From Halarcobacter sp. (GTDB lineage: Bacteria; Campylobacterota; Campylobacteria; Campylobacterales; Arcobacteraceae), in contig NZ_OY781470.1 of the NCBI RefSeq assembly GCF_963676935.1, positions 1,210,680 to 1,274,679 on the forward strand: a DNA stretch of 64,000 bases, written 5' to 3'. The position numbers and the translations under genes were made by a program. Positions 14,816-19,730 of the stretch are shown one piece after another. Numbering within the stretch: position 1 is the first letter of the stretch; each line of letters starts with the position of its first letter. The notes below the pieces were generated by a model. The model was not told the origin of the DNA. It did no database searches and saw only the letters and a program-made list of their open reading frames with translations.

Positions 14816-14884
14816 GCTGAACGTTTGACTTGAGAAATAAGTTCCCGCAAGGGTAACTTATTTCTCTCCAAGGTTTTGTTATGC
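14816..14884 (-). repeat. attC site 1 (69 bp)
   Basis: Minus strand: GCATAAC ... GAGAAATAAGTT/AACTTATTTCTC perfect 12-bp stem ... GTTCAGC; starts 3 nt after the stop at 14888. Confidence 0.85.
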
Positions 14885-14887
14885 AAT

Positions 14888-15394
14888 TTATAATAATCCA
14901 AATAAAGCAGATGCTCCTGCCCCAATCAAACTAGCTACACTACTATTTTGTAAAAGGGTTTTCAAAGTAGCCTTTGCCTCATCATCACCACTTTTTGCAA
15001 TATGCTCAACTAACTGCTGAAAACTTATATTTGTAATCTGTGAATTGTGATTACCAACTTGAATTTGCTCACCTGAAATTGAGCCTATATTAATAGTTGA
15101 TGATTTTTTATTTGAAATATGAGCTTGAGCAGTAGTGTTTTCAACTTTTAGAGTAAGTAAATTAGGATGTTTTGTACCAACATTTAATGTACCACCATGA
15201 AGAAATGAAACATCAACAACTTTTAGATTAATTTCTCTTTTTCCTGACTTTTGAGCAATTATATCTCCTATCCCAACATCTGGTTCATCGCTATAAGGAA
15301 TTCTAACTTCCCCTTTTGACATATCTCTGAATCCTTTATGTTCACTTCCATCTATATAAATTATTTCTGGATAAGCTAACTTATCAAAATCCAT
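14888..15394 (-). CDS. Cassette protein: beta-rich N-domain, RHIM-like motif, C-terminal hydrophobic helix
   Basis: 168 aa; residues 101-123 INIGSISGEQIQVGNHNSQITNI; ends VASLIGAGASALFGLL; AAGGA RBS. Confidence 0.8.
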   Translation of the reverse strand: MDFDKLAYPEIIYIDGSEHKGFRDMSKGEVRIPYSDEPDVGIGDIIAQKSGKREINLKVVDVSFLHGGTLNVGTKHPNLLTLKVENTTAQAHISNKKSSTINIGSISGEQIQVGNHNSQITNISFQQLVEHIAKSGDDEAKATLKTLLQNSSVASLIGAGASALFGLL

Positions 15395-15435
15395 TTTTAT
15401 TCCTTACTTTATATATGTGCTGTATTCTATTATGC

Positions 15436-16350
15436 TTATTTATCCAAAATTACTTCAGATAATTGTTTTGCAATTTCTTCAATACTATTTAATGATGTAT
15501 TTAAAGCAACTTTATCTGCCAATGCTGGACTAAAATTTATTACATCATCTTTTGTTACTTTATGCCAAATAGGTAAAATCATTTTGTGACCATTCATTTC
15601 TCTAGTAACCATGGAGTCAAATTCATATTGAGTCCAACTCTTTGAACAAAATGTAGATGATAAAATCACAGTACCATATTTTGATTTGCGTAGTCCATGA
15701 TCTATACTTTGTCTTAAACTATCTCCAACTTTTAATGTAAACTCATCGTACCATACATTAACACCTAATTCTTTAAGTTTTTCAGCTAATGGTCTAACAA
15801 TTTCTTCTTTATCTTCAGAAGCATGCGAAATGAATAAGTCATATTCTGTAGTTAGTAATGATTTATTAAGAGTGGTATTGATATTTTCATTTTTTTGATT
15901 AATTTCAATTGACATGTTATTTGTATTTTGTATCTCTTGTTGTAATTGTTTTTGAAATGATAATTGCTCTCTTTGTTGTCGTTTTTCTAAATCTAGTAAC
16001 TTTTTTCTTTCTTTTTCATCATTTGCAATTTGTTTTTTACGTTCTTTTTCTTCTTCTTTTGCTAAGTCTTGTTTTAATTTTAATAGTTTTCCATCTTTAT
16101 CAGAAATTTTTTTATGAAAGTCTGCTTTTTTTATTTGTATTTTAGATATTTCACTTCGTTTTCTTTGAATTTCTGTATTTTTACTTTTTATTGTAGATAA
16201 ACTTGTATTTTTAGTAATACTGTTTTCTATTTGACTGATTCTATTACTGCAATCTAGCTCTTTTTTAGTTTCTAAACTCATTTTATGATGAAGATCTGCA
16301 ATTTCTTTCTGTATTCTAATAATTGAGTTACTTATTGTTGAAATAGACAC
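15436..16350 (-). CDS. Coiled-coil + TIR domain protein (TcpB/BtpA-like, probable NADase)
   Basis: YDLFISHASEDK, WYDEFTLKVGDSLRQSID, SKSWTQYE (WxxxE catalytic Glu), ILPIWHKV, LADKVALNT; GTG start with GGAG RBS. Confidence 0.92.
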   Translation of the reverse strand: MSISTISNSIIRIQKEIADLHHKMSLETKKELDCSNRISQIENSITKNTSLSTIKSKNTEIQRKRSEISKIQIKKADFHKKISDKDGKLLKLKQDLAKEEEKERKKQIANDEKERKKLLDLEKRQQREQLSFQKQLQQEIQNTNNMSIEINQKNENINTTLNKSLLTTEYDLFISHASEDKEEIVRPLAEKLKELGVNVWYDEFTLKVGDSLRQSIDHGLRKSKYGTVILSSTFCSKSWTQYEFDSMVTREMNGHKMILPIWHKVTKDDVINFSPALADKVALNTSLNSIEEIAKQLSEVILDK

Positions 16351-16374
16351 TATATCGACTCCTTGTATTTTGTA

Positions 16375-16487
16375 GCCTAACGGTTGAAGTAAACTTCAAG
16401 GCGATAATTTAAAGTAAAAATTGAACTATATTAAAAGTTACTTTTTACTTATTAATTTGATATTACCACAGTATAGCCTTGTTAGTT
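16375..16487 (-). repeat. attC site 2 (113 bp)
   Basis: Minus strand: AACTAAC (overlapping the upstream stop) ... AAGTAAAAA/TTTTTACTT internal stem ... GTTAGGC. Confidence 0.78.
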
Positions 16488-17129
16488 TCTCTGACTTGTT
16501 AGGTTTATTATAGTGTCTATCCAATTTTTAAATCTAGTACATTTTTCTAATATTATAGGTAGTCCAATATCATCGGCGATACTTGCACCATGAAATACTT
16601 TATCATATTGCTCGTTATATTTATCAAAAAACTTATCAATCCTTTTAGATGGTGCTGTTTCTTTTGAATTGTTTATATTCTCTACACCTCCACAACTATT
16701 GATGATACTTTCAATTTCAGTTTTTGCACTTGAATCACTAAAATACTCTTCATAATATGATGGTTCACTAAATAGTAAAGTTTCAAATTCATATTTTTGT
16801 ATATACGGTATAAGTTTTCTATTATTATTAAATAATTCACTTATTTTATTTTCTAATTCTTCTGCTGTATTTGTACTTTCAATATCAAACCCATATAAAT
16901 CATAAAATGTTGTTACATAATCAAAATTTGGTAATATTTTTGTGAGTTCACTTTGAATTCTATCTAAATTGATACAGCCACCTTTATGTTTAGTTCCACA
17001 TTTCTTTCTTTTTGTAGTTACTATTATTGAAACTAGTTCAATATCATGATTTCTAAAATATGGAACTAAAATTTGTTTACAAAACTCATCTTCTGTTTGA
17101 CCTTCAACAGATATAGCAACTCTAATCAT
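16482..17129 (-). CDS. DUF4276-type TOPRIM/RloB-like protein
   Basis: MIRVAISVEGQTE, TTFYDLYG, YEFETLLFS, ETAPSKRI, YDKVFHG; ATG at 17129 overlaps the ATPase stop (ATGATTAG). Confidence 0.8.
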   Translation of the reverse strand: MIRVAISVEGQTEDEFCKQILVPYFRNHDIELVSIIVTTKRKKCGTKHKGGCINLDRIQSELTKILPNFDYVTTFYDLYGFDIESTNTAEELENKISELFNNNRKLIPYIQKYEFETLLFSEPSYYEEYFSDSSAKTEIESIINSCGGVENINNSKETAPSKRIDKFFDKYNEQYDKVFHGASIADDIGLPIILEKCTRFKNWIDTIINLTSQRN

Positions 17130-18301: not shown

Positions 18302-18433
18302 ACCTAACGGTGGAATTGAAAACGAGGGAAGAATCCACTTGATTGTTCAATTCTACTTTTTAATTTAGTTTACAATTTATAAGTTTAAAATCGCAAGTAT
18401 ACCCTCGTTTTTCTTTCCAATGATTTGTTATAC
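18302..18433 (-). repeat. attC site 3 (132 bp)
   Basis: Minus strand: GTATAAC ... AAAACGAGGG/CCCTCGTTTT perfect 10-bp stem, TGGAA/TTCCA ... GTTAGGT. Confidence 0.85.
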
Positions 18434-18828
18434 TACTTTTCAGTTGAATCTCTCATTGTCAGTTCAAAAGAGAAACCTTCATAAACCTGCATCATTGATG
18501 AAAGTTCATCAAATGAGATAAATTTGCCATCAATGACAACTCCTCCACTACTAATTGTTCCCTTAGCTTTATCATGTGAAAAGTTGTATGTATCATTTGA
18601 ACTATGTAAATATCTTATTGATAATTGATTTTTTATTTTATTTCTCAAATCTCCAATTGCCCAAGCTGGATTATCATCAGTTGTACATATAGAGAACTCA
18701 TAAAGACTATTTAAGTCTTTCGCTGTTATACATTTACCTACAAATACATCCTTAATTGTAAATTCAAAAGTTCTTTCATTACTTTCAAAATCCAGAAATT
18801 TTTCTTCAAATGGAAATTCAATACTCAT
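18433..18828 (-). CDS. Hypothetical cassette protein
   Basis: 131 aa ORF flanked by attC3 and attC4; AAGGGA RBS. Confidence 0.75.
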   Translation of the reverse strand: MSIEFPFEEKFLDFESNERTFEFTIKDVFVGKCITAKDLNSLYEFSICTTDDNPAWAIGDLRNKIKNQLSIRYLHSSNDTYNFSHDKAKGTISSGGVVIDGKFISFDELSSMMQVYEGFSFELTMRDSTEK

Positions 18829-18850
18829 TTATTATCCCTTCTTGTTTATA

Positions 18851-18909
18851 GTATAACGACCAAGTTGAGTGGCAGGGCTTTTCCCCTTCGCTCAAACGCC
18901 GGGCTATGT
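18851..18909 (-). repeat. attC site 4 (59 bp, GC-rich, R'' variant)
   Basis: Minus strand: ACATAGC ... TTGAGCG/CACTCAA, AGGG/CCCT ... GTTATAC. Confidence 0.78.
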
Positions 18910-18914
18910 ATTTT

Positions 18915-19421
18915 TTATATTTTTATTCTGTATATTTCATGGGTTAAACCATGAAATATTGTATTTTGCAGATAGCTGAAACCACTTCTTTTTGCCACTT
19001 TGACTGAAGGAATGTTTTCTGGCACAGAAAGTATTATGAGAGAGTCAGCCAATTGTTTATCTTTTACATATTCAACACAGCCTTTCACAGCTTCCGTAGC
19101 ATAACCTTTGCCCCAGTATTCATTTAAAAACCTGTAACCTATTTCGGTCTGAACCTCGTTCTCAACTTCCTGTTTCAATAAACCGCAAATACCTAAAAAT
19201 GACTTATCCTGTTTTCTTATAACCGCAAGAAAGCAATACCCATCATCTTGGTATCTCTCCTGAATTTTTTCGTAAAATGCTTTTGTCTCGTCACGATTCA
19301 AAGTCGAAGGAAAGTACTTCATTACTTTCTTGTTTGAAAGTAATGAATATAAGTTTTCTAAATGTTTTTCTGTGATTTTCTCTAAATACAGTCTTTTAGT
19401 ATCAATTATTGGAGGAGTCAT
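18915..19421 (-). CDS. GNAT N-acetyltransferase (RimJ/RimL type), first cassette
   Basis: IDTKRLYL, FLGICGL, EIGYRFLNEYWGKGYATEA, ENIPS..VA...GF. Confidence 0.9.
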   Translation of the reverse strand: MTPPIIDTKRLYLEKITEKHLENLYSLLSNKKVMKYFPSTLNRDETKAFYEKIQERYQDDGYCFLAVIRKQDKSFLGICGLLKQEVENEVQTEIGYRFLNEYWGKGYATEAVKGCVEYVKDKQLADSLIILSVPENIPSVKVAKRSGFSYLQNTIFHGLTHEIYRIKI

Positions 19422-19436
19422 CTTTTCCTTTCAAAG

Positions 19437-19730
19437 GCATAACTATTTATTGAATATACATTATATATAAAACACCCTAAAAATCAACAAATAACATACA
19501 CAATATGTGTCGTATATCAAAATGCCTACAAACACCTTAAATAAGCTATCTTGTAGATATTACTATAAAAAATATTAGAAATAGAGATGGTTTTTAAATA
19601 AATTTTAAGTTTATGATATGCTTTTTATGTATGTTTAATGTGGATATTTAGACGATAACAGCACATAATGTATGTATATTAAGGTTATATCGTAATAAAC
19701 CTGCAATATTTAAGTGTATATAGAATTGAA
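19437..19730 (-). promoter_or_regulatory. Core site G/TTATGC of the first cassette and upstream non-coding region (candidate attI/Pc)
   Basis: GTTATGC at 19443-19437 lies 16 nt before the GNAT ATG; about 290 bp of ORF-free DNA upstream. Confidence 0.5.

Follow-up and report, generated by a model that had tools for sequence, protein, structure and literature searches.

attC-site clusters that have no integron-integrase (CALINs) are frequent, and how they originated is under debate (PMC4889954; 10.1101/2022.09.11.507474); most of them are not near intI pseudogenes or insertion sequence (IS) elements (PMC4889954). Sedentary chromosomal integrons are described as stores of anti-phage cassettes (cited in PMC12614218), and mobile integrons have been reported to encode phage defence (10.1101/2024.07.02.601719). 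For the Arcobacteraceae, our full-text literature search found no description of integrons. Here we analyze a small cassette array within a 64 kb stretch of a Halarcobacter sp. genome (the window, G000:C1:1210680-1274679); the genome, G000, is a single contig of 3.1 Mb with about 27% GC. Taken as a whole, the array is very probably an integron platform without an integrase gene, whose cassettes were placed by an integron integrase, most likely acting in trans, and which is now frozen.

Because its attC sites are clustered and the 64 kb stretch holds no integrase, the region is a CALIN by the IntegronFinder definition. It is therefore of a known kind, in an unusual form that bears an attI and is probably serviced in trans. 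As in the CALINs already described (PMC4889954), four co-oriented attC sites less than 2 kb apart lie behind promoterless genes, no intI is found within 64 kb, and an intI-related sequence is present elsewhere in the genome. The CALIN definition ignores attI, whereas this array keeps a full attI leader and the ancestral right flank. Also unlike a plain CALIN, it belongs to a set of at least four such platforms in this genome, and platforms like them are found in relatives without any intI. The following are the parts of the platform other than the cassette genes (the bar marks the crossover point).

14703-14815, minus strand: distal flank, read as the ancestral right-hand side of attI, at the far end of the array
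14816-14884, minus strand: attC1, 69 nt, type A, the last site, R' GTTCAGC; R1 61.6 bits, E 7e-12; fold z = -5.5
16375-16504, minus strand: attC2, 130 nt, R'' ACCTAAC, R' GTTAGGC; R2 43.7 bits, E 3e-6; fold z = -3.6
18302-18433, minus strand: attC3, 132 nt, long type; R2 88.2 bits, E 4.5e-15; fold z = -2.3
18851-18909, minus strand: attC4, 59 nt, R'' ACATAGC, L'' GTT[T]GAG, L' CTCAAC, R' GTTATAC
19439-19470, minus strand: attI core, TATATAATGTATATTCAATAAATAG|TTATG, crossover between G19443 and T19442
19444-19748, minus strand: leader, homologous to intI-attI intergenic regions, ending in the attI core and abutting the DUF6858 stop codon and terminator
19460-19487, minus strand: candidate promoter of the cassettes (Pc), directed into the array, TTGATT-16 nt-TATAAT

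We recognized attC sites with lineage-specific covariance models and compared their folds as single-stranded DNA with those of shuffles (z). Model R1 was built from 16 short attC sites and R2 from 6 long ones, all from intI-linked integrons and none from the window; the training arrays were the intI-adjacent arrays of six congeners, which share a few conserved attC types. A preliminary description of this DNA had pointed to four attC-like palindromes behind minus-strand genes and to a fifth core site. All five exist in window 14816-19443, with the four attC sites (69, 130, 132 and 59 nt) on the minus strand. The covariance-model check that it had proposed came out in its favor, since models from integrase-linked arrays score attC1-3, at 44-88 bits. 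These three satisfy the definition of a CALIN as two or more model-recognized attC sites, and the largest gap between neighboring sites is about 1.9 kb (clustering requires <4 kb). All sites are on the minus strand and follow minus-strand stop codons. Of the four lengths first given, 69, 132 and 59 hold, but the second site is 130 nt under R2, which puts its R'' ACCTAAC inside the DUF4276 gene, in the final 23 nt; taking AACTAAC, at the stop codon, as R'' instead had given the earlier length of 113 bp. The folds of attC1-3 are better than those of shuffles, and their extra bases are on the R''/L'' arm, as expected. Among the 184 family genomes that we searched for homologues, attC1 has relatives with 85-94% identity in 12 or more genera, attC2 with 80% identity in G035 and G146, and attC3 with 75-90% identity across many genera of the family. 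attC4 has canonical spacing (R''-5-L'' with one extrahelical base, and L'-6-R').

Could the hairpins be something else? If the region were not an integron but a defence island with ordinary terminators and repeats, it would matter that attC4 folds weakly, that hairpins are plentiful in AT-rich genomes, and that one weak model match falls on a convergent terminator. We consider this to have a negligible chance of being right, as the R1 and R2 matches are specific across the genome, being confined to the cluster in the window and three others (1071-1076 kb, 1757.9 kb and 1790-1795 kb), and the exact G|TT boundaries are those of cassettes that also occur in intI-linked arrays. The weak match (R1, 24 bits, window 6421-6479) was rejected as an attC site: it sits over the ends of a convergent gene pair and vanishes at genome scale. 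Its hairpin is stable (z about -4) and is most likely a bidirectional terminator. When 14000-20500 was scanned against Rfam (E <= 10), no attC family came up, and all matches were of the chance kind. Our own first attC finder, which required at least 6/7 R''/R' pairs, was dropped because it missed even the sites of the true integron.

The head of the array shows what kind of CALIN this is. An attI is normally left unannotated. In this case the leader has 94% identity to its counterpart at this locus in the sister species G015, whose flanking genes have 94-98% amino-acid identity to the window's, and it is 72-94% identical to the intI-attI leaders of the genus where the full ~280 bp aligns. Leaders in other species are 78-91% identical to it, among them the copies that directly adjoin intI in G003, G016, G020 and G022, and shorter pieces that include the attI core adjoin intI in G019 and G024. 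The fifth core site reads AAATAG|TTATGCC, and the attI core matches, with 100% identity over 27-29 nt, sequence that lies 70-270 bp away from intI in G024 and G019. Homology with G015, and with a cassette encoding a GNAT acetyltransferase in G033 (a different genus of Arcobacteraceae), stops at the attI GTT or a few nt past it. Judged from these alignments, the fifth core site is a true attI. The candidate Pc in the leader is the top promoter-like site on the minus strand (10/12 matches), and its TATAAT is kept in all seven of the seven aligned leaders; we suggest that it may be the promoter of the cassettes.

The other end of the array agrees with the head. The distal flank begins G|TTCAGCAACCTCT after the last attC and is 77-79% identical to the sequence behind the last attC of two orphan arrays of G022 that have the same leader lineage. 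The homology starts exactly at G|TT in one of these arrays (L056) and a few nt later in the other (L057). On this homology, the distal flank is the original right half of attI, displaced by cassette insertions as the integron model predicts. An ancestral attI right half at the end of the array would also account for the non-canonical R' of attC1 (GTTCAGC).

With an attI leader at its head, the array reads as a platform missing only intI, and not as a displaced fragment or a secondary-site insertion, both of which have been proposed as routes to CALINs. A move by rearrangement or by an IS element of a piece of the main integron, which lies at 1.79 Mb, is very improbable here. That origin has been put forward for CALINs in genomes that encode IntI (Cury et al., PMC4889954), and the window does have attC types in common with the main array. 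However, the array has its own complete leader and an attI of a different lineage (the blastn match between the leaders covers only the ~30-nt attI core), it has its own ancestral attI right flank, it has no cassette in common with the main array, and we saw no IS at its ends. We find it just as hard to believe that the array was seeded by IntI insertion at a non-att site (attG) and then grew at attC. This process cannot bring in a 300 bp intI-attI leader or an attI right flank, and both are present, although such insertions have been shown and proposed as the origin of small CALINs (Loot et al., 10.1101/2022.09.11.507474) and the empty site in the relative G011 has AAATAGTC, which resembles an attI core. 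Our array is like the attG route to single attC sites lacking integron-integrases (SALINs) in that cassettes are found outside a complete integron; it differs in that the insertion point is a homologue of attI behind an integron leader and not a secondary site in the genome (10.1101/2022.09.11.507474).

Two further features at the ends are recorded as observations. Each leader has a second, intI-proximal motif like the attI core; it is degenerate in the window (19655-19680) and reads CATAATGTATTGTTATTACCGTTATC in the main integron (L008 ~9550-9580). By its resemblance to the core, it may be an extra IntI binding site. Past the distal flank there is a repeat of ~85-110 nt (window 14539-14650), with an inverted copy at window ~60321-60408 and another copy at the end of G015's intI-linked integron (L032 11659-11767).

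Six minus-strand genes lie between the side of an ltaE-like gene and the DUF6858 gene. Their families were assigned with Pfam and PADLOC profile searches, and they are listed from the leader outward.

18915-19421, minus strand: cassette 1, GNAT acetyltransferase, 168 aa, ~37% GC; Pfam Acetyltransf_3, E 5.9e-33
18433-18828, minus strand: cassette 2, DUF7686/DUF7713 protein, 131 aa; Pfam, E 2e-12 and 2e-5
17122-18237, minus strand: cassette 3, gene 1, AAA_21 ABC-type ATPase, 371 aa; Pfam AAA_21, E 1e-28; PADLOC HEC-01A, E 2.8e-148
16482-17147, minus strand: cassette 3, gene 2, DUF4276 protein, 221 aa; Pfam DUF4276, E 1e-42; PADLOC HEC-01B, E 7.5e-64
15436-16350, minus strand: cassette 4, protein with coiled coil and TIR domain, 304 aa; TIR_2, E 7e-20; PDC-S66, E 1.7e-109; ThsB-like, E 1e-49
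15424-15435, minus strand: remnant of the attC of the TIR cassette, R'' GCATAAT (15429-15435), diverging from G102 after ~10 nt
14888-15394, minus strand: cassette 5, 168-aa protein, family unassigned

Copies of several of these units occur in other genera. With attC4 included, the GNAT cassette has 98% identity over 596 nt to G033:C1:368035-368629, a copy that lies about ten cassettes into an array beside an intact intI. The homology begins exactly at G|TTATGCC, and the site in front of it is a type-A attC in G033 and the fifth core site in the window. The 3' part of cassette 2, with attC3, is 96% identical in G033, where it is also beside the GNAT cassette; we note that the G033 DUF7686 cassette (L055 ~7660-8030) has lost ~180 nt internally at its 5' end, and that homology with G033 continues for ~26 nt beyond attC3 into the following cassette. 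The TIR gene is found as a single-gene cassette, 89% identical and with homology from G|TT, in G102 and G165, which belong to two other genera. Comparison with G033 for the GNAT cassette and with G102 for the TIR cassette shows discrete units bounded by G|TT, each with a different upstream site in each genome.

In G102 the TIR cassette is the first behind an orphan attI core and has its own complete type-B attC after the stop codon, beginning GCATAACAAATTAGAG; the stretches concerned are window 15395-15435 and, in G102, L067 ~5850-5930. Because the TIR gene stands alone with a full attC in G102, and only the R'' remnant follows it in the window, the unit of the TIR and 168-aa genes is, on this comparison, a fusion of two cassettes that arose when the TIR cassette lost its attC. 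There were thus five ancestral cassettes, and the array now has four intact attC sites and one truncated one. This changes one part of the preliminary description, which had counted two two-gene cassettes. The ATPase and DUF4276 genes, which overlap by 26 nt, are a genuine two-gene cassette and the only one in the array, but the second pair is the fusion, and the fusion weakens the idea that the TIR and 168-aa proteins are a co-evolved pair. The differences in GC content among cassettes that it described are borne out, with ~37% in the GNAT cassette and 22-31% in the remaining array. For the 168-aa protein we found no Pfam match over the cut-off and no PADLOC match, and for its gene no DNA homologue in the 184 family genomes.

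We searched for integrases with TIGR02249, PF00589 and tblastn of IntI. In the 64 kb window none of these found a tyrosine recombinase, and tblastn gave no intI remnant at E <= 10. All matches fall outside the window, so the earlier statement that the 64 kb hold no tyrosine-recombinase open reading frame is correct. A complete integron has an adjacent, divergent intI; at the corresponding place in the window the leader abuts the DUF6858 stop codon. Among 60 relatives, 15 have integron integrases above the curated cut-off. The sole intI of G000 is 565 kb from the array, where TIGR02249 matches C1:1795634-1796439 in two frames.

G000:C1:1795622-1796442 (L008 9623-10443): intI pseudogene, frameshifted and without 33 codons (193-225 of G015 IntI)

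The missing codons are what we take to be the IntI-specific insertion with the ALERKFP-type motif, required for handling folded attC. G000 therefore encodes no intact IntI with the IntI-specific domain. Upstream of this gene is a divergent array of about ten small genes separated by obvious attC sites. In the sister species G015, an intact IntI of 320 aa, accompanied by a small array of its own, is encoded 43 kb away from the same orphan attI. The preliminary description had suggested either a relic integron or servicing in trans by an IntI elsewhere, and proposed to look for intI outside the window. There is one, 565 kb away, but it is a pseudogene, so servicing in trans would be only historical in this strain; it is plausible still in the sister species.

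The history of the locus was followed through the flanking genes.

12427-13434: ltaE-like gene
13588-14529, plus strand: Sel1-repeat gene, following the ltaE-like gene
19749-20174: DUF6858 gene, on the leader side of the array

In G011, a relative with 82-86% identity in the flanks of the locus, ltaE and the DUF6858 gene are 77 bp apart, which is the empty site. In G015 the same leader abuts the DUF6858 gene and is followed by 8.6 kb of entirely different cassettes (NERD and UvrD, a coiled-coil and CHAT protein, a RelE-type pair, and others). One G015 cassette (175 + 337 aa) is found in the intI-linked array of G000, with G|TTGTAT bounds in both. The block between the ltaE-like and DUF6858 genes is thus neither syntenic nor invariant across relatives, as the first reading of the locus had anticipated; with the model scores and the lack of an integrase in the window, this upholds the CALIN interpretation. 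Most likely, cassettes were exchanged at an attI without intI after G000 and G015 split, by servicing in trans.

Some smaller observations belong to this comparison. The plus-strand Sel1/TPR-repeat gene (13588-14529), which stands between the distal flank and ltaE, is in G000 only and is absent in G015 and G011. The G011 empty-site sequence AAAATAGTCTATTTTTTAA (L031 4696-4719) has degenerate copies flanking the block at window 13487-13517 and 19734-19757; it resembles the attI core (AAATAGT) and is too AT-rich for a target duplication to be told from chance. Relative to this empty site, a possible direct repeat of ~16 nt flanks the block, too AT-rich and degenerate for interpretation. In G015, a 349-aa protein (L030 7887-8936) has an N-terminal coiled coil that matches the N-terminal part of PDC-S66 (E 6e-17) and a CHAT-like C-terminus; next to the TIR protein of the window, this looks like an effector swap on a common N-terminal module, to judge by the profile matches.

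The sister species also bears on the simplest alternative, which is that the array is a pure relic. Under this explanation there was a complete integron here with intI in cis, the cassettes were captured then, intI was later cleanly deleted, and the difference between the sisters reflects evolution before the loss or allele replacement. Loss of intI has been proposed as one origin of CALINs (Cury et al., PMC4889954). Other orphan leaders retain remnants of intI: the 1070-kb locus of G000, G003:C4 (residues 1-34) and G022:C4 (residues 303-320). Loss of intI in situ does therefore occur in the genus. However, tblastn found no intI remnant at this locus, either in the window at E <= 10 or in G015 at E <= 1. 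In both species the leader directly borders the stop codon of DUF6858, which places any loss of intI before their split, yet they have no cassettes in common here. The first two cassettes are also 96-98% identical to those of another genus, which suggests recent acquisition. We regard the pure relic as unlikely, while giving it serious consideration.

Our preferred explanation, a platform without intI that was filled in trans, can be laid out as follows. The stretch 14703-19748, between DUF6858 and (via the Sel1-repeat gene) ltaE, would comprise the attI leader, five ancestral cassettes and the original attI right half; an attI-bearing leader and an ancestral right flank make it a whole integron platform that lacks intI alone. 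The cassettes were inserted by an integron integrase, which joins attI, at G|TT, to the attC of a circular cassette in its folded bottom-strand form, and the exact cassette boundaries show this step. Most likely, the enzyme acted in trans and came from an intI at another place in the chromosome. Since the sister species split off, the whole array would have turned over. Expression of the cassettes would presumably start from the promoter in the leader. The array would now be frozen, as the only intI has lost the IntI-specific domain and its reading frame.

Several observations weigh against this explanation or against parts of it. attC4 received no score from either lineage model and does not surpass shuffles in its fold (z = +0.3). 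A scan for the canonical geometry gave ~210 hits/Mb in the genome and in Markov shuffles alike, so it is non-specific and adds little for attC4. The real support for this site is comparative, in that it belongs to the GNAT cassette, of which another genus has a 98% identical copy in an intI-linked array; site and cassette are conserved together in G033 (95% for attC4 itself), and that copy is the only other one of this attC type among the 184 family genomes. Promoter-like sites in the AT-rich leader region are not enriched relative to shuffles. The explanation does not account for the position of an intI-less leader exactly between DUF6858 and ltaE. Finally, servicing in trans is something that we infer, and the difference between G000 and G015 could also have arisen if the allele was replaced through homologous recombination across leader and flanks, which are conserved.

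The array in the window is not alone, as G000 carries at least four attI-headed platforms in total; those listed here likewise have no working integrase.

1070-kb locus (L050, G000:C1:1066000-1082000): leader 92.7% identical to that of the main integron, the first 52 nt of intI, and about ten cassettes
1755-kb locus (L051, 1750000-1766000): first cassette matches dCTPase, E 3.8e-145
1330-kb locus (L052, 1322000-1334000): attI core, then a 1203-aa gene with an LmuA-like N-terminus

The 1330-kb locus may be another attI-headed array. Orphan leaders with correctly oriented attC arrays are also found in G022 (five or six copies), G016, G003, G007 and G023, and in G007 and G023 they are present even though there is no intI in the genome. 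We tentatively propose that the integron of this genus is distributed, with scattered attI platforms that mostly lack an integrase and one IntI (or now none) that serves them in trans, with the orphan attI sites as active capture sites and with defence genes as many of the cassettes; we regard this as slightly less likely than not.

The cargo of the window array had first been described as dominated by defence-like genes. Three of the six genes do match PADLOC candidate families, but these families are unvalidated. The adjacent HEC-01A and HEC-01B genes are what PADLOC defines as HEC-01, a candidate defence system, and a defence function for the HEC-01 and PDC-S66 modules is presumed from their match to candidate families only. 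The TIR protein resembles Thoeris in matching ThsB-like profiles. Thoeris combines a ThsB TIR protein with a ThsA effector of the SIR2/SLOG or a similar type; in contrast, the TIR gene here has no ThsA-like partner, its best match is the single-gene PDC-S66, and it travels alone elsewhere. Like the integrons described as stores of defence genes, the array is chromosomal, has lineage-typical attC sites, and carries TIR and ATPase-nuclease-like candidates beside an acetyltransferase and uncharacterised genes. It differs from them in being small (5 cassettes), in having no integrase in cis, and in that its defence genes are PADLOC candidates only (HEC-01, PDC-S66).

For CALINs in general, the locus is a clear case of one route, in which attI, leader and ancestral flank are kept and the integrase is absent. 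It is instructive on CALIN origin and unsurprising to a specialist; what is less usual is that attI, leader and flank are all kept, that orphan platforms are multi-copy in the genus, and that they appear to be still turning over. The empty site in one relative, the other cassettes in the sister species and the near-identical cassettes in the complete integron of another genus suggest that the platform keeps exchanging cassettes. If orphan attI sites are indeed served in trans, integron capacity would be larger and more dispersed than counts of intI suggest. With HEC-01 and the PDC-S66 TIR protein as two compact candidates, the Arcobacteraceae would join the lineages that have candidate anti-phage integron cassettes.

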